Positions 9,047 through 57,857 of a DNA stretch of 57,857 nucleotides are shown here, one piece after another. Position 1 is the first letter of the stretch. Every line of letters starts with the position of its first letter. This DNA comes from Burkholderiales bacterium. Lineage in GTDB: Bacteria; Pseudomonadota; Gammaproteobacteria; Burkholderiales; SG8-39. A program made the translations under genes and the position numbers. The stretch spans positions 1 to 57,857 of the forward strand of contig DATKAX010000245.1 of NCBI GenBank assembly GCA_035514595.1, given 5' to 3'. A model generated the notes under the pieces. The model was not told where the DNA came from. It saw only the letters and a program-made list of their open reading frames with translations, and did not search any database.

Positions 9047-11412
<2,366 letters not shown>

Positions 11413-11417
11413 CCGGA

Positions 11418-11683: not shown

Positions 11684-11709
11684 GCCTCGCCGCCGTAAAA
11701 TCTCGCGGC

Positions 11710-13002
11710 ATGAGACTCGCGGTTTTCACGCACCTGCGTGCGGTAGCGCTGCTCGCCGCGGCGGCGCTCGCAGGCTGCGCGACCAATCCGATCACCGGGC
11801 GCAGCCAGTTCCTGCTGGTGTCCGAGGAGATGGCGATCGGAAACTCTGCTTCGGCCTACGCGCAGATGGTCGGGCAGTGGCAGAAGAAGGGCAGGATCGA
11901 GACCGGCACGCCGCGCGCCGAGAAGTTGCGCGAGATCACCGACCGGCTGGTCGCGCAGGCGGTGCGCTTTCGTCCCGACTCCGCGCAGTGGAGCTGGGAA
12001 GTGCAGCTGATCGACGAGCCCAAGACCATCAACGCCTTCTGCATGGCGGGCGGCAAGATGGGGATCTATACCGGGTTCTGGGAAAAGCTCGGGGCGAGCG
12101 ACGACGAGATCGCCGCGGTGATGGGCCACGAGATCGGGCATGCGCTCGCCAGCCACACGCGCGAGCGCATGTCGATCGCGATGACCTCGCAGGTGGCGAC
12201 CCAGGTCGCAGCGATCGCGCTCTCCTCGCGCGATCAGAGCGGGCTCGCGCTCACGGGCATGCAGCTCGCCTCGGTGCTCGCGATCCAGCTTCCCAACAGC
12301 CGCGAAGGCGAGACCGAGGCCGACCAGATCGGCATCGAGCTCGCGGCGCGCGCCGGCTTCGACCCGCGCGCCGCGGTGACGCTGTGGGAGAAGATGGGCA
12401 AGGAAAGCGCCGGCAGGAACCCGCCCGAATTCCTGTCCACGCATCCCTCGCCGCAGAACCGCGCCGCGCGCCTGACGGAGCTGGTGGCGCGGGTCGATCC
12501 GTACTACCAGGCGGCGAAGGCCGGGAAGGGCACGAGCGGCGCGCCGCGCTTTCTCGCCTCCAACGAGGCGGCCAACGAGCGCGTGGTTGCCGCGCCCGGC
12601 GAGCTCTCGCGCGAGGAGTACGCCGCGCGCGCGGCAAAGGAAGCCGACACGCTCACCTTTCTCGCCGAGCCTTTCGAGCGTTTCCGGAGCGCAAGCGCGC
12701 TGTTCGAGTGCCGACTGCAATGCGCCTTCGGCTATGCGGCGAACACCGGCGCCTGGAAGCGGGCGCACGGCAAGGGCGAGTGGCGCGAGCTCGCGCTTTC
12801 GGTGATGCAGGTAGGCTACCTCTCCGACCTCTCCTATTTCATGCTCGCCGAGGCTGCGAACGGCCTCGGGCTCAAGGACGCCGCCGCAACGTACTATCGG
12901 CGCGCGATAGAGGCGGGCAGCCAGTACGGTTGCGGCGCCGCGGAGCCCGGTTGCGAGGGCTTCGAGGTGCAGAAACTGGCGCAGGCAGCGCTGCGCCGCT
13001 GA
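11710..13002 (+). CDS. M48-family zinc metalloprotease lipoprotein with C-terminal extension
   Basis: Lipobox LAGC after a hydrophobic leader; HEIGHAL zinc motif; downstream E...TEADQIG; C-terminal ~130 aa Cys-containing helical region. Confidence 0.85.
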
Positions 13003-23175: not shown

Positions 23176-25179
23176 ATGATCTACGCAGCGACGATCTTCC
23201 TGTCGTCGTTCCTGCTGTTCCTGGTGCAGCCGCTGATCGCGAGGCTGATCCTGCCGTGGTTCGGCGGCAGCGCGGCGGTGTGGACGACGTGCATGCTGTT
23301 CTTCCAGGCGCTGCTGCTCGCGGGCTACGCCTATGCGCACCTGCTCATGAAGCTTCCGCGGGCGAAGCTGCGATTCGCCGTCCACGGCGCGCTGCTCGCG
23401 GCCGCGGTGGCGGTCCTGCCGATCGCGCCCGCGGAAGCGTGGAAGCCGGGGGGCGAAGAAGAGCCGGTGAGCTACATCCTGTGGCTTCTCGCGGCCGCCG
23501 TCGGGCTGCCGTACTTCCTGCTCGCCTCCACGAGCCCGCTGCTGCAGGCCTGGTATGCCCGGGCCCGGCCCGGCGCCAACCCCTACCCGCTGTTCGCCGT
23601 CTCGAACCTGGCTTCGCTCGCGGCGCTGCTCGGCTACCCGTTCCTGGTCGAGCCGGTGTTCAGCGCGGGCGCCCAGGTGAGCGCCTGGTCGTGGCTGTTC
23701 GCGGCGTTCGCGCTGGCTTGCGCCGCCCTCGCCTGGCGCACGCCCCAGCATGCTCTTGCCCCGAAGTTGGAGTCCCAAAACTCGCGAAACGAAAGGCGGC
23801 CGGTCGGGACTTGGCTCGTGCTCTCGGCGACCGGCTCGGTGCTGCTGCTCGCCGTCACCAATCACCTGACGCAGAACGTGGCCTCGGTGCCTCTGCTGTG
23901 GATCGCGCCCCTCACGCTGTACCTGGCGAGCTTCATCGTCGCGTTCGAGGGCAGGGGCTGGTACCGGCCGGAAACCCTCTGGGTATTCCTGCTCGCCTGG
24001 CTTGCCGGCATGGCCTGGCTGCTCGTCGACTCGGAGTTTCACTACGACCTGCCGCTGCAGCTCGGGATGTTTCTCCCCGGCATGTTCCTGGGATGCCTGT
24101 TCTGCCACGGCGAGCTGTACCGGCTGCGGCCGGCGCCGGGCCATCTGACGGCCTTCTATCTCGCGATTTCCGCGGGCGGCGCGCTGGGCGGCCTGCTGGT
24201 GGCGGTGGTCGCCCCGCTTGCTTTCGACGGCTACTACGAGCTCGGCATCGGCCTGGTGGTGCTCGCGCTGCTTGCCGCGCTGCGCTTCGCCGGGCTGGGC
24301 GCCGCCGCGCGCTACGCGAGCCTGGCGGTGCTTTTTGGCGTGGCCGGCTGCGCGGCGTACGAAGGGATGCGGCAGCAGCAGGACGTGCGCGTCGCCTCGC
24401 GCAGCTTCTACGGCGTGCTGCGCGTCAAGGAGTACGGCTCGCCCGGCGAGGAGTCGCACCTGCGCCGTCTCGTGCACGGCACCATCATGCACGGCGAGCA
24501 GTACCAGCACGAGTCGGTGCGCACCATGCTCACCACGTACTACCAGCCGAGCTCGGGAATCGGTGCCGCGATCCTGTCGCGCCAGGAGCGGCCGGTCCGC
24601 ATCGGCGTGATCGGGCTGGGCACGGGCACGCTGGCGGCCTACGGCCGGCGCGGCGACCTCTACCGCTTCTACGACATCGATCCGCGTGTCGTGCGCATCG
24701 CCAGGACCGAGTTCAGCTACCTCACCGACAGCGAAGCCGAGATCGAGATCGCATTGGGCGACGCGCGCCTCACGCTCGGGCGCGAGGCGCCGCAGCAATT
24801 CGACGTGCTGGCGCTCGACGCCTTCTCGAGCGACGCGATCCCGGTCCATCTCATCACGCGCGAGGCGCTCGGCACCTACCTCCGCCACGTCAGGCCGGAC
24901 GGGATCGTCGCATTCCACGTCTCGAACCGCTTCCTCGACCTCGTCCCGGTCGTCGCCCGCCTGGCGAAGGAGCACGCCGCGCACGCGGTGCTGGTGCGCG
25001 ACGACCCCGAGGACGGCGACGGCCTGAGGTCGAAAAGCGACTGGGTGCTGGTGGCGCGCGAGCCCGCGGCGCTTCAGGCGAAGGCGATCGTCGAGGCGGG
25101 CGCGGTGCCGGCCGAGGATCGGCCGGGCTGGCGGACCTGGACCGACGACTACTCCAACCTGGTCCAGATCCTCAAGTGA
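23176..25179 (+). CDS. Fused polytopic membrane domain / spermidine-synthase-like methyltransferase-fold protein
   Basis: About 400 aa of multiple hydrophobic helices, then RIGVIGLGTGTLA...YDIDP...LDAFSSDAIPVHL (SpeE-like). Confidence 0.8.
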   Translation: MIYAATIFLSSFLLFLVQPLIARLILPWFGGSAAVWTTCMLFFQALLLAGYAYAHLLMKLPRAKLRFAVHGALLAAAVAVLPIAPAEAWKPGGEEEPVSYILWLLAAAVGLPYFLLASTSPLLQAWYARARPGANPYPLFAVSNLASLAALLGYPFLVEPVFSAGAQVSAWSWLFAAFALACAALAWRTPQHALAPKLESQNSRNERRPVGTWLVLSATGSVLLLAVTNHLTQNVASVPLLWIAPLTLYLASFIVAFEGRGWYRPETLWVFLLAWLAGMAWLLVDSEFHYDLPLQLGMFLPGMFLGCLFCHGELYRLRPAPGHLTAFYLAISAGGALGGLLVAVVAPLAFDGYYELGIGLVVLALLAALRFAGLGAAARYASLAVLFGVAGCAAYEGMRQQQDVRVASRSFYGVLRVKEYGSPGEESHLRRLVHGTIMHGEQYQHESVRTMLTTYYQPSSGIGAAILSRQERPVRIGVIGLGTGTLAAYGRRGDLYRFYDIDPRVVRIARTEFSYLTDSEAEIEIALGDARLTLGREAPQQFDVLALDAFSSDAIPVHLITREALGTYLRHVRPDGIVAFHVSNRFLDLVPVVARLAKEHAAHAVLVRDDPEDGDGLRSKSDWVLVAREPAALQAKAIVEAGAVPAEDRPGWRTWTDDYSNLVQILK

Positions 25180-46400: not shown

Positions 46401-46838
46401 GTGATGCTCGATGACGCCAGCGCCCAGGTCGAGATCACGGTGTTCAACGAGCTGTTCGAGAAGCACCGCGACAAGCTGAAGGAGGACTCGCTTCTCGTGG
46501 TGCAGGGCAAGGTGCAGAAGGACGAGTTTTCAGGGGGGCTGCGGGTCGCGGCGGAGGACCTGCTCGACCTCGACACGCTGCGCGGACGGTTCGCGGCGCG
46601 CCTTCGCATCGCGATGAACGGGCAGGCGGACGCGAAGCGGCTGCAGCAGATGCTGGCGCCTTACCGGGCCACCGGCGGCGGCGCATGCCAGGTCGTCGTG
46701 AGCTACCAGAACGGCGTCGGGGCGTGCGATGTGGTGCTCGGCGAAGCCTGGCGCGTGCGGCCCGATACCCGACTGCTCGCCGACCTGGGCGACTGGCTCG
46801 CCCCGGAGAACGTCCAGGTCCTCTACGCGAGCGCCTAG
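43407..46838 (+). CDS. dnaE: DNA polymerase III subunit alpha
   Basis: PHP domain FVHLRIHSEYS, GFAGYFLIVADFI, PDFDIDF, YGFNKSHAAAYA; 1143 aa. Confidence 0.97.
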   Translation: MGMARPRFVHLRIHSEYSVTDGIVRLDDVVKRAAADGMPALALTDAANLFGMIKFYGAARAAGIKPIIGADCWLQNEADREKPFRFLLLCASRAGYRRLCELLSRAWLRNAHRGRAEIARAWLEEAPTDGLIALSGAGSGDLGQALLAGHAELAEQLAKRWADHFPGRYYIELQRAGHPAGEALLSRSVALATRLGLPVVATHPVQFLEPDDFKAHEARVCIAQGYVLGDQRRPKQFSAEQFFKSQEEMAAAFADIPQALENSLEIARRCNLEIELGRNRLPAFPTPQGVSIDDYLRIQAEAGLAGRAESLRLPPEDLPRYRERLDFEIRTIVQMGFAGYFLIVADFINWARANGVPVGPGRGSGAGSLVAYALGITNLDPLRYDLLFERFLNPERVSMPDFDIDFCQDGRDRVIGYVRGKYGEDSVSQIVTFGTLAARAVVRDVGRVLDLGYGFCDQLAKLIPVQPGKTITLEMAREMEPLLAQRERQEDEVRELLELGGKLEGLVRNVGMHAGGVLIAPGRLTDFCPLYAAEGTSNVVSQLDKDDVEAVGLVKFDFLGLTTLTILDWAERYVRGLGEPGFSLEKIPLDDAQTYGLLSSANTTAVFQLESRGMRDLIKRARPDRFEDVIALVALYRPGPMDLIPEYIDRKHGKRVEYLDPRLEPILGPTYGIMVYQEQVMQIAQVIGGYTLGGADLLRRAMGKKKPEEMAQQRDIFVAGAQANGVARARATQLFDLMEKFAGYGFNKSHAAAYALLAYQTAYMKAHHAAAFVAANLSAVIDDTDKVRQFHEDGLANRLTILPPDIDASEYRFVPVDRSTIRYGLGAVRGTGEAAISALLEARRAGRFESLFDFCRRIDKRIVNRRVVEALVRAGAFDGIDANRARLLASVGRALEAAEQVERQASQDSLFGEAEAPRGGGHVVIEAAPWSLGQTLLEEKAALGFYLSGHLFSVYERQLAGFPRTALAALSPASHAVWMAGVVSSARTQMTRRGRMMVVMLDDASAQVEITVFNELFEKHRDKLKEDSLLVVQGKVQKDEFSGGLRVAAEDLLDLDTLRGRFAARLRIAMNGQADAKRLQQMLAPYRATGGGACQVVVSYQNGVGACDVVLGEAWRVRPDTRLLADLGDWLAPENVQVLYASA

Positions 46839-47773
46839 GGCCCCCAGCGCACTTGGCAGGGCTCGCGGCCGAGCACGGTGCACTGACGGAAATACCAGGC
46901 GTTCACCAGGCGCCCGGCCGGGTCGAACCTGCGCTTCTCTGCGAGAAACCGGTTGAGCTGCGGGTAGCAGGCGTCGATCTGCTCGCGCGTCGCGTCCGGC
47001 GTAAAGGCGATCGGAAAACTTCCGCCTTGCGCGATCGCTGCGTCGATCAGCGCCAGGCGCGCCTGCGTGGTGCGCACCGCGCCGCCGATCGCCCTCCAGT
47101 CGCCCAGCCGCAGACTCACCTCGGCGAACTCGCGTCGCGCCCAGCGCAGGAAGGTCTCGTCCTCCGGCCGCGTGCGGCGCACCTCGAGCGCCTCCACGGC
47201 GAGGTGCCAGGCGGCGCACACCGCCCGGGCCTCGCCGAGGTAGGCTTCGAGGCGTTCGGGCGGAACCAGGACATGAACCCAGCGCGCGGGGGACCCGGCG
47301 TCGGGGAGGACCCGCGGCGTGCCCGCCAGGGACTCGCTCACGGCGCGCTCGAGCGAGGCGACGCGCAGGGTGACGCTGTAGGCGGCGCCGAACAGTCCGT
47401 GTCCGCCGACGGCGAGGCCGAACAACTCGGGATGCACCGTGCGGCTCGCGCGCCGCAGCTCGCCGTCCGGCGTGACCAGGGCGAGCGACTCGACATGCGC
47501 CACGGCCGGGCGCCCGTCGGGCCCGGCGGCGTTCGCGGCGATGCTCTCGCCGACGCTCGCCAGGGTGGTGGGAATCCCCGCCACCTCGGCGTCTCCGGGA
47601 CGCAAGCGCTCGGCGAGCGCCTTCCAGGTCGTGCCGGCCTGCACCTCGACCAGACCGCGATCTGCGTCGTGGCGCAGGATGCGGTCCAGCCGCGCGGGGT
47701 CGATGCGGCGGGCGTGGCGCACCGCGTCTTGCAGCTCCAAAGCGGACAACGGGATAGTGAGCATGCTTGGCAT
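46835..47773 (-). CDS. FAD-binding (PCMH-type)-like oxidoreductase, atypically short
   Basis: LVEVQAGTTWKAL..., PDGELRRASR..HPELF...GGHGLFG, C-terminal FDPAGRLVNAWY. ATG 47773 is preceded by GGGGAGG. The usual GxGHS segment is not evident. Confidence 0.55.
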   Translation of the reverse strand: MPSMLTIPLSALELQDAVRHARRIDPARLDRILRHDADRGLVEVQAGTTWKALAERLRPGDAEVAGIPTTLASVGESIAANAAGPDGRPAVAHVESLALVTPDGELRRASRTVHPELFGLAVGGHGLFGAAYSVTLRVASLERAVSESLAGTPRVLPDAGSPARWVHVLVPPERLEAYLGEARAVCAAWHLAVEALEVRRTRPEDETFLRWARREFAEVSLRLGDWRAIGGAVRTTQARLALIDAAIAQGGSFPIAFTPDATREQIDACYPQLNRFLAEKRRFDPAGRLVNAWYFRQCTVLGREPCQVRWGP

Positions 47774-47834
47774 GAGAGCCTCCCCGGGTCGATGCGATGC
47801 CGCCGATTGTTCGGCGGCAGCTTGCTGCAGCGCA

Positions 47835-47853
47835 ATACCTGCAGCGCAGGTAT
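47835..47853. promoter_or_regulatory. Inverted repeat ATACCTGC-AGC-GCAGGTAT in a divergent promoter region
   Basis: Perfect 8-bp arms; also a direct repeat CTGCAGCGCA x2 (47826-47835 and 47840-47849); lies between the FAD-like gene and the HTH gene. Confidence 0.3.
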
Positions 47854-47876
47854 CGGAATCTGCTACCGTGCGTCGC

Positions 47877-48620
47877 ATGCCTTCCCGCAGCCGCTTCGTT
47901 GAGGCGCTCAAGAAAAGCGTGCGCGCCCGGGGCCTCACCTATGCCGGCCTGGCGCGCGAGCTGCGGCTCTCGGAGGCGAGCGTGAAGCGCATGTTTTCCC
48001 GCGGCAGCTTCAGCCTCGCGCGCATCGAGGAGATCCTGGCGGTGCTCGATCTCGAGCTGCATGACGTCGCGCGCATGAGCCGCGGCGCGGCCTCGGGGCC
48101 GCTGGAGCTCGCGCACGAGCAGGAGGCGGCGCTCGCGCGCGACGAGCGCCTGCTCTCGGTGTTCTGGCTGGTGCTGAACGACTGGCGCTTCGAGGAGGTA
48201 CTCGATACGTTTTCCATCACACGCGCCGAGCTGACGCTCGCCTTCGCCCGGCTCGAGAAGCTCAAGCTGATCGATTGGGGGCCGCGCGAGCGCGTGCGGC
48301 TCAGGGTGCCCCGGGACTTCCGCTGGCGCGCCGGCGGCCCGGTGAAGAAGGCCTACGGCCGCCGTGTGATGGGCGAATTCCTCGCCGGACGGTTCGACGC
48401 GCCGCTCGAGCTGCTGCGATTCGAGTCGCGCGTGCTCTCGGCCGAGTCGGCCGCGGTGCTCAAGCGCCGGCTGGAGCGCCTGGTCGTGGATTTCAACCAG
48501 CTTGCCGAGACCGACTCCTCGGTTCCGAGCGGACGCCGCGTGGGCATTGCGCTCCTGGCGGCGTGCCGGCCGTGGGAATTCTCGGTGGTCAATGCCTTGA
48601 AACGGCGCAAGAGCGCCTAG
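47877..48620 (+). CDS. XRE/Cro-type HTH transcriptional regulator with ~170-aa C-terminal domain
   Basis: [35 protein letters not shown] at the N-terminus. Confidence 0.7.
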
Positions 48621-48898
48621 ACCGTGGGGTGCAGTTCGAACCCGGCGTAAGACGGCTCCTGCGCATCGCCCTGGGCTGCGATCAGCTGCGCAACCACGGC
48701 ACCGGGCGGACCGCGGCGCGCCCAGGCGATCAAGGATTCGACGATCTCCTCGGGGCCCTGAAGCATCGCCTCGACGCTGCCGTCCGCGCGGTTCCTGACC
48801 CAGCCGTTGACGCCCAGTTTTCGCGCCTCGTGGCGTAGCGCGGCACGGAAGCCGACGCCCTGTACGCGGCCTTTGACACGAATTTGCCGCGTCACCAT
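48617..48898 (-). CDS. acyP: Acylphosphatase
   Basis: [11 protein letters not shown]...[12 protein letters not shown] signature. Confidence 0.85.
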
Positions 48899-48967
48899 GC
48901 AACGCCCCGACACCCCATGTTAAGCTGGCCTTCGCTCTGAGGAGCGAAGCGAAAGGGGAAAAACAAC

Positions 48968-49360
48968 ATGCGCATCGCCTTGCTTATTGTCGCAGCGCTG
49001 GCCTTGGTCGCGTTCGTCGCGGTTTCGTATGTGCTGCCGCAGATGCAGGGCGCCCAGGCCATGGGCGCTGCGCAAGCCCTGATCAGCGGCGCCGATGCGG
49101 CGAAGCAGCAGGTCGCGGCGGCGGCGCAGAAGTCCGGCAGCCTCGCCGGTTCGGGAAAGGGCGTGAAGATCGCGCCGAGGAACGATCGCGAGCACGGCGA
49201 GATGAAATGGATCGTCGCCGACAACGGCGCGATCCGCGGCTGGAACGGCAAGAACGCCCTCGAAGTGGCGATCACGCCCGCGCTCCAGGCCGCCAACGTG
49301 AGCTGGACCTGCAAGGGCTATCCGGTCAGCGCGATGCCGGGGAGCTGCGGCGGCCGCTAG
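48968..49360 (+). CDS. Pilin-fold protein lacking a class III (prepilin) signal
   Basis: Hydrophobic alpha1-like N-terminus, AQALISGADAAKQQV..., C-terminal disulfide loop WTCKGYPVSAMPGSC; no G/FTLIE cleavage motif. Confidence 0.55.
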   Translation: MRIALLIVAALALVAFVAVSYVLPQMQGAQAMGAAQALISGADAAKQQVAAAAQKSGSLAGSGKGVKIAPRNDREHGEMKWIVADNGAIRGWNGKNALEVAITPALQAANVSWTCKGYPVSAMPGSCGGR

Positions 49361-49865
49361 CCGAGCTGACCGCGGTCAGGATCCCCTGGATGATGGCCGC
49401 GGGCTCCGGCGGGCACCCCGGCACGGCCACGTCGACCGGAATCACGTTCGAGACGCGCCCGCGGCTGGCGTAGCTCTCGCCGAAGATCCCCCCGCTGCAG
49501 CCGCAATCGCCGATCGTTACCACGAGCTTGGGCTCCGGCGTCGCGTCGTAGGTGCGGCGCAACGCCTCCTCCATGTGGCGCGACACCGGTCCTGTGACCA
49601 GCAGCAGGTCGGCGTGGCGGGGGCTGGCGACGAAGCGCACGCCCAGGCGCTCGAGGTTGTAGTAGGGGCTGTTGCAGGCATGGATCTCGAGCTCGCAGCC
49701 GTTGCAGGAGCCGGCATCCACGTGGCGGATCGCGAGCGAGCGCCCGAAATGCTCGAGCACCGTTTCCCGCAGGCGCTGCGCCCCGAGGCGCAGCGCCTCG
49801 TCGGGCTGCGGGGCAGGCTCGCTGACAAGGCCGGTCTTGGCGATCTGCTTCAGGATCTGGTACAT
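49326..49865 (-). CDS. NuoB/HycG/HyfI-like small subunit (4Fe-4S)
   Basis: GSCNGCELE, SPRHADLLLVTG, GDCGCSGG, PGCPPEP. Confidence 0.9.
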   Translation of the reverse strand: MYQILKQIAKTGLVSEPAPQPDEALRLGAQRLRETVLEHFGRSLAIRHVDAGSCNGCELEIHACNSPYYNLERLGVRFVASPRHADLLLVTGPVSRHMEEALRRTYDATPEPKLVVTIGDCGCSGGIFGESYASRGRVSNVIPVDVAVPGCPPEPAAIIQGILTAVSSASGRRSSPASR

Positions 49866-49867
49866 GG

Positions 49868-51421
49868 CTAGAGGTCCTGGCCGCTGTAGGACAGGTTGAA
49901 CGACTTGTTGATAAGCGGGAAGTCCGGGACGATGTTGCCGAGCACGGCGCGCTCGAGCGCCGGCCAGTTCTGCCACGACGGGTCGTGGGGATGCACGCGA
50001 TGCAACCTGCCTTCAGCCGCGGTCTCGAGCGCGAGGAAGACGTCGCCGCGCCAGCCTTCGATCCAGCCGCAGCCGCGCCGCCCGGGCTGCGGCGCCGGCA
50101 TTGGAGCCCGCAGCTCGCCGCCCGGCATGCGCTCGAGCAGCGCGCGGATCAGCCGCAGCGACTCTGCCAGCTCCTCGAAGCGCACCGAGACGCGCGCCGC
50201 GACGTCGCCGCGAATGTGCCCGGCGACGCGCACGGCGAGATCCTGGTAGGGTGGTACCGGCAAATCGAAACGCAGGTCGTGCGCCTGTCCGCTTGCGCGC
50301 CCGGCAAGGCCGGTGAGGCCGAGCCGCTCGGCAAGCTCGGGCGACACCTGTCCGGTCATGATGAACCGGTCCTGGGCGCCCGCGTGCTCGTCGTAGATGG
50401 CGCGCAGGACGGCGATCTCGGCCTCCAGCGCGGCGAGCGCTTCGCGCAGGCGCTCGCTGCCCGCAGCTTCGAGGTCGCGTGCGACGCCGCCCGGCACCAC
50501 GTAGTCCATCAGGTAACGGTGCCCGAGCAGCTCGCGCTGCAGCCGCAGAAGATCCTCCTTCAGGCGCCAGAACTGGAAGAAGCCGAACGACAGGGCGACG
50601 TCGTTGCCGAGATAGCCCAGGTCGCCCAGATGGTTTGCGATGCGCTCGAGCTCGAGCGCGACGCCGCGCAGCGCGGCGGCGCGCGCTGGGACTTCGACGC
50701 CGCACGCGCCCTCGAGCGCCATGGCGTAAGCCCAGGCGTAGGCGACGGTCGAGTCGCCGCTCACCCGGCCGGCGAGGCGCGCGCCGTCCTCCGCGCTCAG
50801 TTCCTCGAAGCGTTTTTCGATGCCCTTGTGCTTATAGCCGAGGCGCTCCTCGAGCCGCAGGATCTTCTCGCCGACGATCGAGAAGCGGAAGTGGCCCGGC
50901 TCGATGGTGCCGGCGTGGACCGGCCCGACCGGAATCTCGTGCACGCCTTCCCCCTCGACGCGTACGAAAGGGTAGCGGTCCTCGCCGGTATCGAAGCGCG
51001 CCGCGGCATCGAAATCCTTGCGCAGCGGGAACACGCCCCCGGGCCACGCGCCGTGGCGCAGCCACTTGCGCTGGTCTGCGTTCGCCTGCGCGTGCACGCC
51101 GAGCAGGTCGTAGGCGGCACGCTGCATGCGGCTCGCGGCGGGGAAGATGTCGGCGATTCCGGGGTAGCGGGGGTGCTCGCGCTCGAGCGCGACGCTGAGC
51201 CACGCCAGCCCGGCGCGCAGGGCGAGCGCGACGTGAAGCACGTAGCCTGCGCCGCGCGGCGTTTCGTCGCTTGCCCAAAGCGCCACCAGCCGCGCCTTCT
51301 GCGCGCGCGCCTTCTCGGCCACGCCGCGCAGGGCATCGCGCTCGAGCTCGGCGTGCCACGCGGGCAGCGCGCCGGGCAATCGTCGTGCCTCGATGCCGAG
51401 ATCGGGGAAGGGCAGGCTCAT
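49868..51421 (-). CDS. Fused NuoC-NuoD / HycE-HyfG-like large subunit lacking the Ni-Fe cysteine ligands
   Basis: VGPVHAGTIEPGHFRF, LGYKHKGIEK. RVSGDS replaces RxCGxC and NLSYSG replaces DPCxxC. 517 aa. Confidence 0.88.
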   Translation of the reverse strand: MSLPFPDLGIEARRLPGALPAWHAELERDALRGVAEKARAQKARLVALWASDETPRGAGYVLHVALALRAGLAWLSVALEREHPRYPGIADIFPAASRMQRAAYDLLGVHAQANADQRKWLRHGAWPGGVFPLRKDFDAAARFDTGEDRYPFVRVEGEGVHEIPVGPVHAGTIEPGHFRFSIVGEKILRLEERLGYKHKGIEKRFEELSAEDGARLAGRVSGDSTVAYAWAYAMALEGACGVEVPARAAALRGVALELERIANHLGDLGYLGNDVALSFGFFQFWRLKEDLLRLQRELLGHRYLMDYVVPGGVARDLEAAGSERLREALAALEAEIAVLRAIYDEHAGAQDRFIMTGQVSPELAERLGLTGLAGRASGQAHDLRFDLPVPPYQDLAVRVAGHIRGDVAARVSVRFEELAESLRLIRALLERMPGGELRAPMPAPQPGRRGCGWIEGWRGDVFLALETAAEGRLHRVHPHDPSWQNWPALERAVLGNIVPDFPLINKSFNLSYSGQDL

Positions 51422-52866
51422 CCGATGAAGGCCGCCGCCTGGCGATACCAGTCGACGAGGTACGGTGGAATATACAGGCCGAGCAGCAGCACGAGCGCGA
51501 GATGCACGAATACCGGGACCAGCGCAGGACGGTGCGGCAGCGGCGCCGCGCTCGTCTCGCCGAATATCATCGGCTGCACCTTGCCGAAGATCGCCGCGAA
51601 AGCGACGCCGAGCGCGATCAGCAGGAACGGCGTTGCCCAGGAATGCTCGTGCATGGCCGTCGTGAGCACCATGAACTCGCTCGTGAACACGCCGAACGGC
51701 GGCATGCCAAGGATCGCGAGGGTGCCGAGCGCGAGCCCCCAGCCGATAGTCGGGCTCTGCTGGATTAGGCCGCGGATCGAGCCCATGTCCTGGGTGCCGC
51801 AGGCCTGCGTGGCGTGCCCGACGGTGAAGAAGATCGCCGACTTGGTGAGCGAGTGCACGGTCATGTGAAGCAGGCCGGCGAACGCGGCGACCGGCCCGCC
51901 CATGCCGAAGGCGAACGTCATGATCCCCATGTGCTCGATCGACGAATAGGCGAACATGCGCTTGATGTCCTTCTGGCGCGAGAGGAAGAACGCGGCCACC
52001 ACCACCGAAAGCAGGCCGAAGCCCATCATCAGCCCGCCCGAGAAATTGCGCTCGAGCGCGCCGTCCACCAGCACCTTGCTGCGCACCACGGCGTAGAGCG
52101 CCACGTTGAGCAGCAGCCCGGAGAGCACTGCCGAGATCGGCGTCGGGCCCTCGGCGTGCGCGTCGGGCAGCCAGTTGTGCAGCGGCACGAGCCCGACCTT
52201 GGTGCCGTAGCCGACCAGCAGGAAAACGAAGGCGAGCGACAGCACGGTGGGCTCGAGCTCGCCGCGCACTTCGTGCAGGTGGGTCCAGAGCAGCGCGTGG
52301 CCGCCGGGGCCGAGCACCTTCTCGGCGGCGAAGTAGAGCAGGATGGTGCCGAACAGCGCCTGCGCGATGCCGACCGAGCACAGGATGAAGTACTTCCAGG
52401 CAGCTTCCAGGCTCGCCGGGGTGCGGTACAGCGATACCAGCAGCACCGTGGAGAGCGTCGCCCCCTCCATCGCCACCCACAGCATGCCGACGTTGTTCGA
52501 CAGCAGCGTGAGCAGCATGGTGAAGCTGAACAGCTGGTACATGCTGTGGTAGAGCCGAAGGCGCGCGCTGTTGACGCGCTGGTGGTGCTCTTCGGTGCGC
52601 ATGTAGGGGCGCGAGAACAAAGCAGTGGTGAACGCCACGAACGCGGTGAGCGCCACCAGGAACACGTTGAAGGGATCGACGAACACCTGCTCGTTGAGCG
52701 CGGTCATCGGGCCGTCCGCGATCACGCGCGCGGTGAGCAGCGCCGCGGCGGCCAGCGTGCCGAGGCTGGCCGCCGCGTTCGCCTCGGGCGCCCAGGGTCG
52801 GTGGCCGAAGGCGGCGAGCAGCACCGCCCCCGCGAGCGGCACCCCCAGGACGAGCGCGATCTCCAT
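51418..52866 (-). CDS. Antiporter-like membrane subunit (HyfF/NuoN-like)
   Basis: 482 aa polytopic, WLPDAHAEGPTPISA motif. Confidence 0.9.
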   Translation of the reverse strand: MEIALVLGVPLAGAVLLAAFGHRPWAPEANAAASLGTLAAAALLTARVIADGPMTALNEQVFVDPFNVFLVALTAFVAFTTALFSRPYMRTEEHHQRVNSARLRLYHSMYQLFSFTMLLTLLSNNVGMLWVAMEGATLSTVLLVSLYRTPASLEAAWKYFILCSVGIAQALFGTILLYFAAEKVLGPGGHALLWTHLHEVRGELEPTVLSLAFVFLLVGYGTKVGLVPLHNWLPDAHAEGPTPISAVLSGLLLNVALYAVVRSKVLVDGALERNFSGGLMMGFGLLSVVVAAFFLSRQKDIKRMFAYSSIEHMGIMTFAFGMGGPVAAFAGLLHMTVHSLTKSAIFFTVGHATQACGTQDMGSIRGLIQQSPTIGWGLALGTLAILGMPPFGVFTSEFMVLTTAMHEHSWATPFLLIALGVAFAAIFGKVQPMIFGETSAAPLPHRPALVPVFVHLALVLLLGLYIPPYLVDWYRQAAAFIG

Positions 52867-53534
52867 CAATCTTCCTTCAGCTTTTCCATGTGACGGATCT
52901 CGAGGCTGTCGAACTGCTCGCGGATGTGGAAGAAGAAGATGCCGAAGATGAAGGTGCCCACCAGCACGTCGAGCGCGATCCCGAGCTCGACGACCAGCGG
53001 CATTCCGTAGGTGGCGCTGGTCGCGGCGAAGAACACGCCGTTCTCCATGGACAGGAAGCCGATCACCTGCGGCACCGCCTTGCGGCGCACGATCATCATC
53101 AGGAACGACAGCAGCACGCTGGCGAGCGCGATGCCGAGCGTCGAGCGCGTGATGGTGCTCGCCATCTGCGAGATGGGGGTGGCGAGCGCGAAGGCGAAGA
53201 TCGCGAGGCCGATGCCGACGAGCATCGTGGCCGGGATGTTGATCAGCGTCTCTACGTCCCAGCGCACGGACAGCTTGTCGATCAGCCGGTGCAGCACCCA
53301 CGGGATCAGGATCACTTTGAGCAGCAGGGTCAGGGCCGCGGAGAAGTACAGATGCCAGTGGCCGGTGATGTAGGCCACGATCAGGGTCGACAGGGCGAGC
53401 GCGGCGCCCTGCCAGGCATACAGCTTGATCAGCGTCAGCACGCGGCGCTGCGCCAGCATCGCGAAGGCGAGCAGCAGCAGCAGCGCCGCGAGCAGGTTGA
53501 CCAGCTGGCTGCTGAGCGGCAGCGCCGCGCTCAT
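52866..53534 (-). CDS. HyfE-like small membrane subunit
   Basis: 222 aa, multi-TM, position between the hyfC-like and hyfF-like genes, MENGVFF block. Confidence 0.8.
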   Translation of the reverse strand: MSAALPLSSQLVNLLAALLLLLAFAMLAQRRVLTLIKLYAWQGAALALSTLIVAYITGHWHLYFSAALTLLLKVILIPWVLHRLIDKLSVRWDVETLINIPATMLVGIGLAIFAFALATPISQMASTITRSTLGIALASVLLSFLMMIVRRKAVPQVIGFLSMENGVFFAATSATYGMPLVVELGIALDVLVGTFIFGIFFFHIREQFDSLEIRHMEKLKED

Positions 53535-54481
53535 GCGTGCACCACGAAATGGATCAGCATGCCGAGCACCGCGAGCAGGAAGGCGGTCGACAGGAATTCG
53601 GACGCCAGGAACAGGCGCATCTTCGCGAGCAGCGCCTCGATGAGCGCAAGTCCGGCGCCGGCAACGGCGAGCTTGGCGGTGAGCGCGCCAAGCGCGAGCG
53701 GCAGCGCCGCCCAGTCCTGCGCCGGGGCGATGCCCCAGGGCAGGAACAGCGCGAAGCCGATCCCCATGTAGGCGACCAGCTTGATCGCCACGGCCCACTC
53801 GATCAGCGCGAGGTGCCGCGCCGAATACTCGAGGATCATGGCCTCGTGGATCATGGTGAGCTCGAGGTGGGTCGCCGGGTTGTCCACCGGGATGCGCGCG
53901 TTCTCGGCGAGCAGCACCATGAGGAACGCGACCCCCGCGAATGCGAGGCTCGGGTAGATCGCGAATTCGCGGTGCGCCAGCGTCTCGACGATCGTCGGCA
54001 GCTGCGTCGAGCCGGAGATGAACGCCGCGGTGAACAGCGTCATCAGCATCGCCGGCTCGGCGAGGAAGCCGATCATCATCTCGCGCCGCGCGCCCAGGCC
54101 GCCGAACGAGGTTCCGGTGTCCATCGCCGCGAGCGCGCCGAACACCCGCGCCACGGCGAATACGCCGACCAGCGCGATGATGTCGGCGGCGGGAGCAAAC
54201 GGCAGGTCGGTGGCGAGCATCGGAACGATGCCGGCGGCGAGCCACATGCAGCCGAAGAGCACATAGGGCGTGATGCGAAACAGGGGCGAGGTGGTGTCGG
54301 CGATGACCGCGTCCTTGTGGAACAGCTTTGCCAGCGTGTAGTAGGGCAGCCAGGGGCTCGGCGCCGAGCGATTCTGCAGCCACGCGCGGCAGATGTTGAC
54401 CCAGCCCATCACGAGCGGCGCGACCAGCACCACCAGCACCGACTGCAGCACCTGGAAGGCGATGGCGGGAAGCTGGCTCAT
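53531..54481 (-). CDS. NuoH/HycD/HyfC-like membrane subunit
   Basis: 316 aa; RIPVDNPATHLELTMIHEAMILEYS block is typical of HycD. Confidence 0.9.
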   Translation of the reverse strand: MSQLPAIAFQVLQSVLVVLVAPLVMGWVNICRAWLQNRSAPSPWLPYYTLAKLFHKDAVIADTTSPLFRITPYVLFGCMWLAAGIVPMLATDLPFAPAADIIALVGVFAVARVFGALAAMDTGTSFGGLGARREMMIGFLAEPAMLMTLFTAAFISGSTQLPTIVETLAHREFAIYPSLAFAGVAFLMVLLAENARIPVDNPATHLELTMIHEAMILEYSARHLALIEWAVAIKLVAYMGIGFALFLPWGIAPAQDWAALPLALGALTAKLAVAGAGLALIEALLAKMRLFLASEFLSTAFLLAVLGMLIHFVVHA

Positions 54482-56493
54482 CGCACGAACACCAGCAGCG
54501 CGATCAGGGTCAGGAAGCTGTACAGCAGGTAGATGCTGATGCGGCCGCGCTGCAGCAGCCCGACCTTTGCAGAGACGTACTCCGCAAGCCGCGCCACCGG
54601 CAGGTAGAGCCAGTACCAGTGACGATCCTCGATCTTGAGCGTGTACCTGGGCGCCGGGTCATCGGGTCCCGGCAGCTGCCGCTTCATCAGGTACAGGGGT
54701 CCGAACACGTGCCGGATCGGCTGGCCGAAGGCGTCCGCCGTGTCCTGCATGCGGGTGGTCTGCTCGGGGAAACCGCAATCCCAGGGGGCGGCGGCGCGCA
54801 CGCGGCCGTGGTAGAACCACCGCACCAGGCGCAACGTGATCAGCACCACGGCGAGCACCACGAAAAGAAAGATGATCGGGCTGTAGCTCGCCTGCGCCGG
54901 GCTGGTCGGTACCAGCCACAGCCAGTTCGATTCGAGTGCCGCCGTGGCGAGCCCGCTGCCGGTGACGGAGGCGCCCACGCGGTTCAGCGTGAGCAGCATC
55001 GCGGAAGGAAACAGCCCCAGGACGAAGCAGCCGGCGGTGAGCCATGCGAGGCCGATCTGCTCGCTCGGGCTTGCATCGCCTCGTGGACGCGGCGTCTCCG
55101 CGGCGAGGCGCGCGCGGCCGAGGAATGCCACCCCGAACACCTTGACGAAGCACATCGCAGTGAGCGCCCCGGCGAGCGCAAGGGTGGCGGCGAACAGCGG
55201 CAGCAGGCTTCTGACCACGCCGTTTTCGAGCAGCGGCGCCTGCAGCGCGGTCTGGAAGGTGAGCCATTCCGAGACGAAGCCGTTGAGCGGCGGGAGCGCC
55301 GAAATCGCAAGCGCGCCGACCAGGAAGCAGAACGCCGTGACCGGCATGGTGCGGATCAGCCCGCCCATGGCGTTGAGGTCGCGCAGGCCGGTGGCATGCA
55401 GGATCGAGCCGGCGCCGAGGAACAGCAGCCCCTTGAACACGGCGTGGTTCAGCGTGTGATACAGCGCCGCGATCAGCCCGAGCGCGCCGGCTGCGGGATG
55501 CCCGAAGCCGAAGAACACCATCGACATGCCCAGGCCGAGCAGGATGATGCCGATGTTCTCGACCGAGTGATAGGCGAGCAGCCGCTTGAGGTCGTGCTGC
55601 ATCAGCGCGTAGAGCACGCCGAACAGCGTGGTGCCGGCGCCGATCAGCAGCACCAGGATGCCCCATTCCCAGCGCACGTCCCCGATCAGGTCGTAGCTCA
55701 CGCGCACCATGCCGTAGATCGCGGTCTTGATCATCACGCCGCTCATCAGCGCCGAAACGGGCGAAGGCGCCGCCGGGTGCGCCTCGGGCAGCCAGGCGTG
55801 CAGCGGGATCATGCCCGCCTTGGCGCCGAAACCGAAGAACGCGAGCAGGAACGCCACGCTCGCCCAGAACGGGTCCAGTTCGGCGGCGCGCAGCGCGTCG
55901 AACGAGTAATCGCCGCCGCCGCCATGCATGACGCCGAAGCACAGCAGGATCGCGAGCGCGCCAAGGTGCGCGATCAGCAGATAGAGGAAGCCGGCGCTGC
56001 GGATCGGCGGCCGGTGGTGATCCGTCGTGACGAGGAAATACGAAGCCAGCGCCATCGTCTCCCACGCGACCATGAACAGGTACGCGTCGTCGGCGAGGAT
56101 GACCACGGCCATGCTCGCCAGGAAAACGTGGTACTGCATGCAGATGAGCCGCAGTCGTGGCGCTCCCTCCTCGCCGAAGTAGCCGACGCAATAGACTGAA
56201 ACGCCGGCGCCTACGAACCCGAGCAGCAGCAGGAAGAACCCGCTGAGCGGGTCGAGCCTGAGGTGAAACGGCAAGTCCGGCAGTCCGAGGGGCAGAACCA
56301 TGCCCGAGGCGGGCAACCAGGCGGCCTGCGCGCCGAGCGTCGCGAGCGCGAGGCCCGCAACGGCGCCGGCCGGAAACAGTACCTTGAGCGCAAAACCGGG
56401 CCTCGCCGGGAGCAGCCCGAGCGCGCCGATCGCGAGCCAAGACAGGACCGCGGCAAGCGATCCGGCAAGCAGGCTGTCAGAGCTCTCGATCAA
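54478..56493 (-). CDS. Antiporter-like membrane subunit (HyfB/HycC/NuoL-like)
   Basis: 671 aa polytopic, WLPEAHPAAPSPVSALMSG. TTG start at 56493 (no in-frame ATG nearby). Confidence 0.9.
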   Translation of the reverse strand: MIESSDSLLAGSLAAVLSWLAIGALGLLPARPGFALKVLFPAGAVAGLALATLGAQAAWLPASGMVLPLGLPDLPFHLRLDPLSGFFLLLLGFVGAGVSVYCVGYFGEEGAPRLRLICMQYHVFLASMAVVILADDAYLFMVAWETMALASYFLVTTDHHRPPIRSAGFLYLLIAHLGALAILLCFGVMHGGGGDYSFDALRAAELDPFWASVAFLLAFFGFGAKAGMIPLHAWLPEAHPAAPSPVSALMSGVMIKTAIYGMVRVSYDLIGDVRWEWGILVLLIGAGTTLFGVLYALMQHDLKRLLAYHSVENIGIILLGLGMSMVFFGFGHPAAGALGLIAALYHTLNHAVFKGLLFLGAGSILHATGLRDLNAMGGLIRTMPVTAFCFLVGALAISALPPLNGFVSEWLTFQTALQAPLLENGVVRSLLPLFAATLALAGALTAMCFVKVFGVAFLGRARLAAETPRPRGDASPSEQIGLAWLTAGCFVLGLFPSAMLLTLNRVGASVTGSGLATAALESNWLWLVPTSPAQASYSPIIFLFVVLAVVLITLRLVRWFYHGRVRAAAPWDCGFPEQTTRMQDTADAFGQPIRHVFGPLYLMKRQLPGPDDPAPRYTLKIEDRHWYWLYLPVARLAEYVSAKVGLLQRGRISIYLLYSFLTLIALLVFVR

Positions 56494-56549
56494 GCAGCGC
56501 GAATTATATTATCATTCGATTCACATTTGGAGCGCATGGTCCCATACCG

Positions 56550-56732
56550 ATGAAGAAGATGGAGGAACGCACCGCCCGGCTCACCATTCTGGTCGATCCG
56601 CGAAAGAAAGCGCTCTTCGAAAGGCTGTGCGCGGAGCAGGATCAGACGCCCTCCCAGGTCGTGCGGCGGCTGATCCGCGAGTACATCGAGGCGCGCCTGG
56701 GCAGGCCCTGGGTGCCGGGCAAGGACGACTAG
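56550..56732 (+). CDS. Ribbon-helix-helix (CopG-like) DNA-binding protein
   Basis: RLTILVDPRKKALFERLCAEQDQTPSQVVRRLIREYI is a beta-alpha-alpha pattern; 60 aa. Confidence 0.6.
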   Translation: MKKMEERTARLTILVDPRKKALFERLCAEQDQTPSQVVRRLIREYIEARLGRPWVPGKDD

Positions 56733-57857
56733 CGCTTGCCGGAGCGTCCGTCCCGCTTGAGGATCGCGCCCGCCACCAGAAGCCCGCAAACCGCGGCGCC
56801 GCCCACCAGCAGCCAGTCGCGCCTGCGCCAGCCGCGCGGCGCCGGGCGGGGCAGCGAGCGGATCGCCTGGGTGGCGGTCTGGCTTTCCGCGGCATCGGTC
56901 AGCGTGCTCCCGGTGAGCGCCGCGAGGCGCTGCGTCGCTTCCATCGAGTCGAAGGACGCCGCCATGCCGCGCGACGGCGCCGGCGCGGTCTCTTCGGGCG
57001 CCCCGTCTGCCTCGCGCGTGCGATTGAAGGTCTGCGCGAGCACCACCGACTGGGCGCGCGTATCGACGAGCTCGGGCTGCGAGCCGCTCGCCAGCGTCGC
57101 GATCGGACGCGAGGGCTGGGTCGTGGTGAGCGGCCCGGCAAGCTGGCGCTCGCACTCGCGCAGGTCGCGCGCCACCTCGCGCGCATCGCTGTAGCGCCCG
57201 TCGAGCGGCTTGGAGAGCATCTTCGCGACGATGTAGTCCAGCATCTCAGGCACCGCTTTGTTGATCGCGCCGGGCGCCGGCGGGGCGAAGTTGACGATCT
57301 GGTACATCAGCGCGGTGACGTTCTCGCCGCTGAAGGGCGCCGAGCCGCACAGCATCTCGTAGAGGATCACCCCCAGCGAGAAAATGTCGGAACGATGGTC
57401 GGCACGCTTGCCGATCACCTGCTCGGGCGACATGTACTTCGGCGATCCCAGCATGACGCCGGTCTGGGTGAGGTCGACCGAGGCGCGCATGCGCGCGATG
57501 CCGAAATCGGTGATTTTCACCGGGCCGCTCGCCACCACCATGATGTTCGCCGGCTTGATGTCGCGGTGCACGATTCCCTGGCGGAACGCGTAGTCGAGCG
57601 CTCCGCAGCACTTGAACGCCACCTCGAGCGCGTCGTCCACATCTAGCAGGCCGTCTGACGCGGTGAACTGGGCGAGGTCGCCGCCCGGCACGTACTCGAT
57701 CGCGATGTAGCCGCCGCCCTGCTCTTCCACGGCCGCCTCGAGGATCGTGGCGATATGCGGATGCGAGATGCGCCCGGCGAGCGACGCTTCGTTGAGAAAC
57801 TGCTTCGTGTGGGTCTTGTCGAAGTCTTCCGCCGCGACGACTTCCGGGTCGAGCACC
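56729..57857 (-). CDS. Hanks-type Ser/Thr protein kinase, C-terminal TM anchor (N-terminus beyond window)
   Basis: HRDIKPANIM, DFGIA, SPEQ, then a Pro/Ala-rich linker and TM WLLVGGAAVCGLLVAGAIL 9 aa from the stop. Confidence 0.9.
   Translation of the reverse strand, partial: VLDPEVVAAEDFDKTHTKQFLNEASLAGRISHPHIATILEAAVEEQGGGYIAIEYVPGGDLAQFTASDGLLDVDDALEVAFKCCGALDYAFRQGIVHRDIKPANIMVVASGPVKITDFGIARMRASVDLTQTGVMLGSPKYMSPEQVIGKRADHRSDIFSLGVILYEMLCGSAPFSGENVTALMYQIVNFAPPAPGAINKAVPEMLDYIVAKMLSKPLDGRYSDAREVARDLRECERQLAGPLTTTQPSRPIATLASGSQPELVDTRAQSVVLAQTFNRTREADGAPEETAPAPSRGMAASFDSMEATQRLAALTGSTLTDAAESQTATQAIRSLPRPAPRGWRRRDWLLVGGAAVCGLLVAGAILKRDGRSGKR

Follow-up and report, generated by a model that had tools for sequence, protein, structure and literature searches.

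What does a hydrogenase-4-like complex do once its large subunit has lost the cysteines of the [NiFe] site? The question is raised by six co-directional genes, here called A to F, which occupy positions 49326-56493 on the minus strand of a 57,857-nucleotide (nt) stretch of Burkholderiales DNA (assembly GCA_035514595.1, contig DATKAX010000245.1), the whole of which we refer to as the window. In the large subunit encoded by gene E, the former Ni-Fe pocket has been rebuilt with an invariant Ser-Gly-Asp and an invariant Asn-Lys-Ser...Tyr...Gly-x-Asp and holds no conserved cysteine. The likeliest reading, although it is not settled, is that the complex is an ion-translocating oxidoreductase with a single [4Fe-4S] cluster and not a [NiFe] hydrogenase. 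The operon itself is almost certainly a member of the family already described under the names Ehr and Hyq.

Gene E (49868-51421, minus strand) encodes a fused NuoC::NuoD/HycE-like large subunit of 517 amino acids without [NiFe] cysteines, which is matched by the Pfam families Complex1_30kDa and Complex1_49kDa and carries the motifs VGPVHAGTIEPGHFRF and LGYKHKGIEK. Its closest solved relative, as judged by sequence match to the PDB, is E. coli HycE (7z0s_E, E = 3.6e-61). We aligned the protein to HycE with HMMER and, using MAFFT, with HycE, HyfG, NuoCD and the Variovorax and Rhizobium orthologues. Both alignments place HycE RVCGICGFAH opposite RVSGDSTVAY and HycE DPCYSCTDR opposite NLSYSGQDL, and all four [NiFe] cysteines are substituted (RVCGIC to RVSGDS and DPCYSC to NLSYSG). 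The remnant of the N-terminal RxCGxC, RVSGDS at residues 219-224, is encoded at 50750-50767 on the minus strand, and the remnant of the C-terminal DPCxxCxxR, NLSYSGQDL, at 49871-49897 on the same strand (NLSYSG itself at 49880-49897), immediately before the stop codon at 49868-49870. An initial annotation of this DNA had already claimed the loss of all Ni-Fe cysteines and had assigned positions to RVSGDS and NLSYSG; these nucleotide coordinates are exact, and neither alignment brings any pair of cysteines into register. The protein ends right after the final Asp-Leu, which in the alignment is the position of the processed HycE C-terminus. Maturing HycE is cleaved at this point, so the window protein carries nothing for a maturation protease to remove, and in 76 of 81 loci the stop codon directly follows the C-terminal motif.

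The residues that took the place of the cysteines are held constant or nearly so. Across 83 orthologues of gene E, mostly beta- and gammaproteobacterial and reaching down to 43% identity, Gly222 and Asp223 are present without exception, Ser221 is found in 74 and Ser or Thr at position 224 in 81. In the C-terminal motif Asn505, Lys506 and Ser507 occur in all 83, Tyr512 and Asp516 in 82, and Gly514 in 80. The loop between the first two beta strands, GPxHAGxIEPGHFRF, is nearly invariant as well, and cysteine occurs in at most 57% of the sequences at any column. A confident AlphaFold2 model of the protein (predicted local distance difference test, pLDDT, 88.8; predicted template modeling score, pTM, 0.92) falls below a score of 50 only at residues 166-176, 195-199 and 513-517, the first and last of which correspond to the beta1-beta2 loop and the C-terminal motif, both bordering what was once the active site. 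When this model was compared with the PDB using Foldseek, the best match was again 7z0s_E (template modeling score, TM, 0.93), E. coli NuoCD reached a TM of ~0.85, and no Ehr or Hyq structure was found. Our literature search and the PDB likewise yielded no solved structure or biochemical characterization of the family, and a pangenome paper on Gallionellaceae makes no mention of the complex.

An invariant pocket is also what would be expected if the complex were a real H2-converting enzyme, the "endo-hydrogenase" proposed for Hyq of Azorhizobium caulinodans, with a catalytic site independent of the four canonical cysteines. The pocket residues are not drifting among the orthologues of gene E, and the hydrogenase-type loop IEPGHFRF is retained together with its Glu174 and His177. 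Deletion of hyq in A. caulinodans slows diazotrophic growth and, in a hupSL-deletion background, removes ~80% of microaerobic H2 evolution (PMC2650096, PMC3357923), while a nifK hupSL double mutant still produces H2 at a high level (PMC3357923). These H2 data, however, are whole-cell and indirect, and the Ehr complex of Nitrospira is not induced by H2 (PMC12342949). Even the cysteines C258, C491 and C497, reported by Sprecher et al. as fully conserved in alphaproteobacterial HyqG (PMC3357923), are replaced by Gly272, Ile504 and Leu510 in the window protein. The corresponding columns hold cysteine in 19, 18 and 3 of the 83 orthologues and are otherwise mostly Gly, Ile and Leu, and no conserved cysteine exists anywhere in the large subunit of the window's clade. 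To our knowledge, no known hydrogenase chemistry works without a thiolate-bound metal. We therefore regard an endo-hydrogenase of this kind as very unlikely, but the Azorhizobium reports of hyq-dependent H2 uptake and evolution are the reason why we do not treat the verdict "not a hydrogenase" as settled.

In contrast to the large subunit, the small subunit has kept its metal ligands. Gene F (49326-49865, minus strand; 179 amino acids) encodes a NuoB/HycG-like protein (Pfam Oxidored_q6, E = 7.2e-33) in which Cys54, Cys57, Cys121 and Cys151 are in register with the cysteines of HycG, HyfI and NuoB and are retained in 76 to 78 of 78 orthologues. Around the first two cysteines the sequence is GSCNGC as in HycG, unlike NuoB, where a tandem CC binds cluster N2. 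The alignment shows that gene F keeps the ligands of a single predicted [4Fe-4S] site of the hydrogenase type (CxxC...C...C).

The other four genes, all on the minus strand, encode the membrane arm. Gene A (54478-56493; 671 amino acids, TTG start) is a HyfB/NuoL-like, antiporter-like membrane subunit, matched by Pfam Proton_antipo_M (E = 6.8e-58) and by NCBIfam NF005086, "hydrogenase 4 subunit B", with 858 bits against a cut-off of 667. It is followed by gene B (53531-54481; 316 amino acids), a HycD/HyfC/NuoH-like membrane subunit (Pfam NADHdh, E = 1.5e-28), and by gene C (52866-53534; 222 amino acids), a HyfE-like membrane subunit whose match to NCBIfam NF008556, "hydrogenase 4 membrane subunit", lies under the curated cut-off (E = 3.3e-24). 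Gene D (51418-52866; 482 amino acids) is a second antiporter-like subunit, of the HyfF/NuoM-N type, with matches to Pfam Proton_antipo_M and to NCBIfam NF005045, "hydrogenase 4 subunit F" (860 bits, cut-off 543). In gene A, Glu145 of transmembrane helix (TM) 5, Lys225 of TM7, Lys256 of TM8 and Glu409 of TM12 align with the pump residues of NuoM, and gene D keeps the Glu of TM5, Lys of TM7 and Glu of TM12 known from NuoL/M/N (Glu134, Lys223 and Glu397) and has Asn at the TM8 position, the same as HyfF. R133, E142, D200, E207, E218, K270 and R289 of gene B are invariant with HyfC, HycD and NuoH. At least 95% of 72 orthologues keep K73, E164, E183 and D189 of gene C, as does E. coli HyfE. As far as aligned residues can tell, the NuoH-like, HyfE-like and two antiporter-like subunits thus keep the charges used for ion translocation in complex I and Hyf.

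From gene A to gene F the junctions overlap by 4, 4, 1 and 4 nt, and a 2-nt gap separates the last two genes; all six reading frames are intact. The six genes with overlapping or near-abutting junctions, their Hyf/Nuo-like identities and the four cysteines of the NuoB-like subunit had all been put forward in the initial annotation, and each is borne out here, the genes by open reading frames (ORFs), Pfam and NCBIfam and the cysteines by the alignment with HycG, HyfI and NuoB.

Since transport residues persist in the two antiporter-like subunits as well as in the HyfE- and NuoH-like ones, and since the window holds no identifiable electron-input subunit, one could suppose that the complex carries out no redox reaction. 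It would then be an Mrp-like cation/proton antiporter or a similar transporter, in which the peripheral arm and its cluster are structural or act as a redox sensor. Mrp antiporters, however, do without a NuoB/C/D arm, whereas the arm of this complex is no less conserved than its membrane part. Invariant pocket residues beside the cluster, together with invariant cluster ligands, are what a catalytic site would be expected to show. A non-redox transporter is, in our view, improbable.

We also considered that the operon might be the decaying and functionless remnant of hydrogenase-4. It is without the hyfA, D, H, J and R genes of E. coli, and the genome paper on Cupriavidus metallidurans CH34 likened the operon of that strain to an incomplete one (PMC2864759). 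Against decay stand the six intact frames with their translational-coupling overlaps, the recurrence of the six-gene set, in unchanged order, in several phyla at 43-86% identity, the more than 8000 clusters at 90% identity that match the large subunit, and the invariance of the substituted residues among the 83 orthologues of gene E. These conservation data refute the remnant, to which we give next to no credence. With pocket residues, cluster cysteines and pump residues all conserved, the family is by its sequences under selection for function, and its pattern is that of a presumably working ion-translocating redox machine and not of a relic.

The breadth of this family and its relation to true hydrogenases could be followed through the large subunit. 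The best of the matching clusters are Burkholderiales metagenome bins, 70-99% identical, and clustering at 50% leaves 1104 representatives with E <= 1e-30, among them true hydrogenases and NuoD. The exact sequence of the window's large subunit is not on record; a relative that is 99% identical (P0001) lies on a 6.2-kb metagenome contig in ENA with the same downstream genes. Of 101 full-length representatives, most carry R-x-S-G-D-[S/T/E] and N-L-S-Y-[S/A]-G-x-D-L, and a minority carry R-x-C-G-x-C and E-L-C-Y-x-C-x-D-R, which marks the latter as true [NiFe] enzymes. A neighbor-joining tree of 100 sequences, computed without bootstrap support values and without a named Geobacter Ehr sequence, gathers all cysteine-less sequences in one group beside the group with all four cysteines, and HycE and HyfG fall outside. 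Within the cysteine-less group the window protein sits with Variovorax, and Rhizobium HyqG is found in a neighboring branch. A single group of this kind suggests one ancient loss of the site, and so the tree points to a Ni-Fe site that may have been lost once, long ago, from a group-4 [NiFe] hydrogenase ancestor. Five sequences of the cysteine-less clade (P0125, P0128, P0130, P0243 and P0263) keep a cysteine at the first ligand position (RxCGDS...), which is either ancestral or a reversion.

A scan with one genome per species gave 80 loci, from Gallionella, Sideroxyarcus, Thiobacillus, Thiomonas, Methylibium, Paraburkholderia, Burkholderia, Rhodanobacter, Steroidobacter, Acidithiobacillus, Methylobacter, Mariprofundus, Acidobacteria and Nitrospirota; the list was ranked by similarity to a Burkholderiales query and cannot show enrichment in iron-, sulfur- or nitrite-oxidizers. 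Among 83 loci from Beta- and Gammaproteobacteria, Nitrospirota and Acidobacteria, at 43-86% identity, all those whose flanks are long enough keep the genes in the order A-B-C-D-E-F. Six of the loci are from Nitrospirota (L065, L067, L076, L078, L084 and L086), with large subunits 44-48% identical to that of the window; the three with enough upstream flank (L067, L084 and L086) show the full gene order, and L065 is without detectable matches to A and B. In L067 two operons of the Ehr/Hyq type stand in tandem (98-12188), the upstream one 33-39% identical to C, D and E of the window (62% for F) and the downstream one 45-65%. Immediately upstream of its six-gene operon, the Methylibium locus L024 contains another cysteine-less cluster that differs from the first (1-3000). 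The large subunit of this second cluster carries ...IVGDSS... and ...FDLSYCGNDL, and in the small subunit a NuoI-like 2x[4Fe-4S] domain is fused to a NuoB-like domain. In Aquabacterium L039 (300-3800), tblastn matches follow the same order as in this second Methylibium cluster, and at the very edge of Variovorax L001 (1-500) there is a partial small-subunit match with an annotated 4Fe-4S protein.

If the six subunits are a redox machine, electrons must enter them, and the genes that would provide such an entry were sought in the window by tblastn with E. coli HycF, HyfH, NuoI, HyfA, HycB, HydN, HypA-F, HycI, FdhF, NuoE/F/G, NuoA, NuoJ and NuoK. Within the 58 kb there is no match to a ferredoxin-type subunit, the HycI protease, FdhF, NuoI, NuoE/F/G, NuoA, NuoJ or NuoK, and none of the six frames of the window contains the ferredoxin motif CxxCxxCxxxC[PGAS]. 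No hyp gene was found there by the HypA-F searches, the sole HypF match being an acylphosphatase domain at 48698-48886; for hyp and fdh genes this absence covers these 58 kb and not the whole genome. HyfD also matched genes A and D, as their paralogy would lead one to expect. The initial annotation had stated that the window contains no HycF/HyfH subunit, formate dehydrogenase, hyp gene or endopeptidase, and the tblastn and motif searches agree with it. The acylphosphatase match belongs to a stand-alone gene just downstream of the operon (48617-48913, minus strand), also present in the closest relatives L008, L045, L083 and L090, and it probably matches HypF only because it is homologous to the N-terminal domain of that protein.

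Taken together, the lack of a conserved cysteine in the large subunit, its end at the processed C-terminus of HycE, and the absence of hyp and protease genes from the window argue that this is not a [NiFe] enzyme. The same is argued for its relatives by the Nitrospira Ehr complex, which H2 does not induce (PMC12342949), and by M. tuberculosis, which lacks maturation genes (PMC6728331).

Genes lying up to 4 kb to either side of the operon were clustered for 84 loci, and no ferredoxin, flavodoxin, formate dehydrogenase or hyp partner is conserved there. The recurrent neighbors are a ribbon-helix-helix (RHH) gene, a spermidine-synthase-like gene and a large response-regulator-like protein; other clusters resemble shadow ORFs of high-GC DNA. 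Nor is a HyfH, HycF or NuoI gene inserted in the operon in any of the 83 loci that has enough flank. These observations bear on the idea that the six subunits are a coupling core that recruits an electron-input module encoded elsewhere, such as a formate dehydrogenase or a NuoI-like ferredoxin protein, and so act as a respiratory module driven by formate or another substrate. In its support, the Ehr subunits of Geobacter are more abundant on formate (PMC7894505), and a pairing of formate dehydrogenase with Ehr has been proposed for Margulisbacteria and Saganbacteria (PMC6349859). The fused NuoI-like domain upstream of the Methylibium operon means that some relatives carry a ferredoxin-type module, and the gene order in Aquabacterium and the partial match with its 4Fe-4S protein in Variovorax lie in the same direction. 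However, in 83 loci the 4 kb around the operon hold no conserved partner of this sort and only the RHH gene recurs, the 58-kb window has none, and just one locus, L033, has a weak FdhF-like match nearby. We hold a recruited module to be rather unlikely.

How, then, might the likeliest reading, an ion-translocating oxidoreductase with a single [4Fe-4S] cluster, work? Judging from the architecture of the complex, electron transfer through this one cluster could be coupled to ion translocation. The cluster would exchange electrons directly with a soluble one-electron carrier, for example ferredoxin or flavodoxin, which would dock on the NuoB-like surface that is normally covered by the missing NuoI/HycF subunit; with that position vacant, a small carrier should be able to get to the cluster from the cytoplasm. 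It would also exchange electrons with a substrate in the remodeled pocket at the NuoD/NuoB/NuoH interface, most plausibly a membrane quinone, which Sprecher et al. proposed as a partner (PMC3357923). In the forward direction the reaction would build an ion-motive force, and in the reverse direction the ion-motive force would drive the transfer of electrons from quinol to a low-potential carrier. Reverse operation would fit the membership of the operon in the nif regulon of rhizobia and its presence in iron-, sulfur- and nitrite-oxidizers. We offer this mechanism tentatively, considering it somewhat more apt to be wrong than right.

Several points weigh against the proposal that the complex is such an oxidoreductase. 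None of our results identifies a donor or an acceptor, and no ferredoxin or flavodoxin gene is conserved beside the operon within the ±4 kb of the 84 loci. The quinone ligands of complex I have no equivalents in gene E by alignment, with Gly222 at the position of Tyr87 and a hydrogenase-like sequence in the region of His38 (T. thermophilus numbering), and the cluster ligation of gene F is of the hydrogenase CxxC type, unlike the tandem CC of the quinone-reducing N2 cluster. With the ligands absent and the cluster ligation hydrogenase-type, a quinone acceptor is not specifically supported. In A. caulinodans, moreover, hyq was credited with ~80% of the H2 evolved under microaerobic conditions, even when nifK was mutated (PMC3357923), and the proposed mechanism does not directly explain these data. 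The tree, finally, lacks bootstrap values. A far bolder possibility is that the SGD / NKS...YSGxD pocket is a new catalytic site that turns over H2 without cysteine-bound Ni-Fe; a less radical variant is the reverse transfer from quinol to ferredoxin or flavodoxin. We think an H2 site of that kind extremely unlikely, but if true, a cysteine-free H2 site would vindicate the whole-cell data on Azorhizobium Hyq and define a fourth hydrogenase class, and the reverse variant would explain both nif-regulon membership in rhizobia and the presence of the operon in iron-, sulfur- and nitrite-oxidizing lithoautotrophs.

Regulation of the operon may involve the recurrent RHH gene, which in the window encodes 60 amino acids on the plus strand (56550-56732; Pfam RHH_9, E = 6.9e-24, above the cut-off), is divergent from the operon and lies 56 nt from the start of gene A. 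Of the ~55 loci with enough upstream flank, 20 in addition to the window have an RHH homologue directly upstream of the operon, at 49-79% identity and in either orientation. We found no description of an RHH_9 gene beside the operon in the papers that we consulted. The divergent intergenic region of 56 nt (56494-56549) contains an AT-rich element, CGAATGATAATATAATTCG, and near-palindromes of the ATGATAAT type occur in the divergent intergenic regions of five other loci (L051, L053, L054, L061 and L063). Scans for consensus promoters and inverted repeats did not flag the AT-rich element upstream of gene A. Sites resembling those of sigma-54 are absent from 56494-56800 upstream of gene A, and 15 matches were found across the whole window against 19 expected by chance. 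The RHH_9 protein probably regulates the operon, rather than NifA/sigma-54 as in Azorhizobium, and the CGAATGATAATATAATTCG spacer, as read from the sequence, is a candidate operator and promoter for it. Beyond the RHH gene, a Ser/Thr protein kinase gene (56729-57856, minus strand), cut by the end of the window, converges on it, and the two stop codons overlap by a few bases.

The recurrent spermidine-synthase-like neighbor, a "fused MFS/spermidine synthase" (NF037959), flanks the operon in 13 loci (L001, L003, L022, L024, L026, L029, L031, L039, L042, L043, L051, L055 and L066); the member of this family in the window lies at 23176-25179 on the plus strand, 29 kb from the operon. At its 3' end, gene F is overlapped by 35 nt by a convergent ORF of 130 amino acids (48968-49360, plus strand) with a hydrophobic N-terminus and no family match, which is conserved in L045 and is called as a gene on contig L090. 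Further downstream, two ORFs overlap by ~500 nt, one on the minus strand with a FAD_binding_4 domain (46835-47938) and one on the plus strand without a family match (47439-48620). On L090, which is near-identical, the gene caller gives 312 and 247 amino acids for the counterparts of these two, and the true starts at 46835-48620 must therefore be shorter than the longest ORFs. Within the operon, a plus-strand ORF at 49985-51868 that had been picked by a heuristic based on G+C at third codon positions (GC3) is a shadow of gene E, the Pfam evidence being on the minus strand. Scans for promoters, terminators and repeats across the operon gave nothing above chance. The G+C content of the window is ~69%, and the remainder of it encodes chromosomal housekeeping functions (UvrD, PEP carboxylase, Lon, SecDF, Tgt, PurM, PcnB and DnaE); as these surroundings are ordinary, the operon is not on an obvious mobile element.

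Members of the family abound, and public annotation labels their subunits hydrogenase-4, formate hydrogenlyase or NuoC. The initial annotation had predicted such mislabeling, and current names fulfill the prediction. In RefSeq the Variovorax and Rhizobium orthologues are called "hydrogenase 4 subunit B/F", "formate hydrogenlyase", "hydrogenase-4 component E" and "NADH-quinone oxidoreductase subunit C/H/B", and the JGI name of the large subunit is "Ni,Fe-hydrogenase III large subunit". As a consequence of this routine misannotation, H2 or formate metabolism is over-called when metabolism is reconstructed from genomes and metagenomes. What reaction a relative of complex I with one iron-sulfur cluster carries out is also a question for bioenergetics in general, and the SGD / NKSFNLSYSGxDL pocket, the lack of conserved cysteine in the large subunits of the Burkholderiales clade and the RHH_9 gene offer targets for mutagenesis and for work on regulation in Cupriavidus necator H16, C. 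metallidurans CH34 and Paraburkholderia.

How does the operon compare with the systems already described? The term Ehr, under which one part of the family is known, was reportedly reused by Marreiros et al. in 2013. It stood for "Ech-hydrogenase-related" in Geobacter sulfurreducens (GSU0739-0745; EhrA-1, EhrC, EhrL and EhrS) and was later read as "energy-converting hydrogenase related" (PMC7894505, PMC12342949, PMC10284858, PMC6728331, PMC6349859, PMC4758237). Ehr is found in about half of Nitrospirales genomes (PMC12342949) and has been placed next to the group 4f hydrogenases (PMC10284858), in line with our neighbor-joining tree, and M. tuberculosis has an Ehr-type cluster (Rv0081-0087, with subunits Rv0082-0087; PMC6728331). 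The window operon shares with Ehr a group-4 type large subunit without CxxC motifs, a NuoB-like small subunit and NuoL-, NuoH-, HyfE- and NuoM-like membrane subunits, and its Nitrospirota orthologues belong to the group called Ehr (PMC12342949, PMC10284858). Nothing essential sets the two apart; the window's clade has an RHH_9 gene where M. tuberculosis has the ArsR-type regulator Rv0081. The initial annotation had assigned the operon to the Ehr class, which the architecture and the Nitrospirota orthologues uphold, and had described this class as inferred from comparative genomics; the class is not known from that source alone, as Hyq has been studied genetically and the hyfBCEFGI genes of Cupriavidus had been noted.

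Hyq is encoded by hyqRBCEFGI (AZC_4355-4360) of A. caulinodans as a six-subunit core homologue of complex I, and its operon is NifA-dependent (PMC2650096, PMC3357923). H2 uptake as well as evolution has been reported to depend on it (PMC2650096, PMC3357923). HyqG is a NuoC::NuoD fusion of 504 residues that lacks both CxxC motifs, so that its authors called a Ni-Fe site "uncertain, if not unlikely", and HyqI has four conserved cysteines (PMC3357923). The gene order B-C-E-F-G-I is identical to that of the window, the fused large subunit is of similar build (517 amino acids in the window), and the Rhizobium orthologue, 43-45% identical in this subunit, falls in the same cysteine-less clade. The two differ at the three HyqG cysteines discussed above: Rhizobium reads ...GAICND... 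and PLCNKSFNCSYSG, whereas the window protein reads ...GYLGND... and PLINKSFNLSYSG. They also differ in their regulation, as the window has neither an XRE-type hyqR nor any HTH gene upstream of the operon, lacks a NifA/sigma-54 promoter and has the divergent RHH_9 gene instead, whereas Rhizobium has an HTH_3 gene; there are no nif genes in the window.

The closest cultured relatives that we found are those of Cupriavidus, where hyfBCEFGI of C. metallidurans CH34 (Rmet_4666-4671) and C. necator H16 (H16_A2196-2201) were described as resembling an incomplete hyf operon and as unlikely to support growth by lithotrophy (PMC2864759). In CH34 the large subunit shares 59% identity with that of the window (Variovorax, 57%), the same six genes are present, and there are RHH homologues on both sides; the CH34 operon, however, is on the second replicon, whereas that of the window lies among chromosomal housekeeping genes. 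With E. coli Hyf and Hyc the operon shares subunit-for-subunit homology to HyfB, C, E, F, G and I and the hydrogenase-type CxxC at the proximal cluster. It differs from them in having neither the [NiFe] cysteines nor a cleavable C-terminal extension, in lacking HyfA/HyfH (HycB/HycF), HyfD, HyfJ, HyfR and FocB, and in having no fdhF, hyp or hycI nearby. Complex I and the MBS complex of Pyrococcus, on the other hand, also lack a Ni-Fe site in NuoD and MbsL. They resemble the window complex in their NuoB/C/D arm, in their NuoH-like and antiporter-like subunits and in a proximal [4Fe-4S] cluster that faces a pocket at the membrane interface, and they differ from it by the NuoI/MbsN 2x[4Fe-4S] subunit, NuoEFG, the tandem-Cys ligation of N2 and, in complex I, by the quinone ligands His38 and Tyr87 of NuoD, which have no equivalents in gene E. 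The operon therefore adds no new kind of system, since the hyfBCEFGI layout has already been published as Ehr, as Hyq and as the hyf genes of Cupriavidus; what it adds to these is a Burkholderiales version without any conserved cysteine in the large subunit, with an invariant rebuilt pocket and with a dedicated RHH_9 gene.

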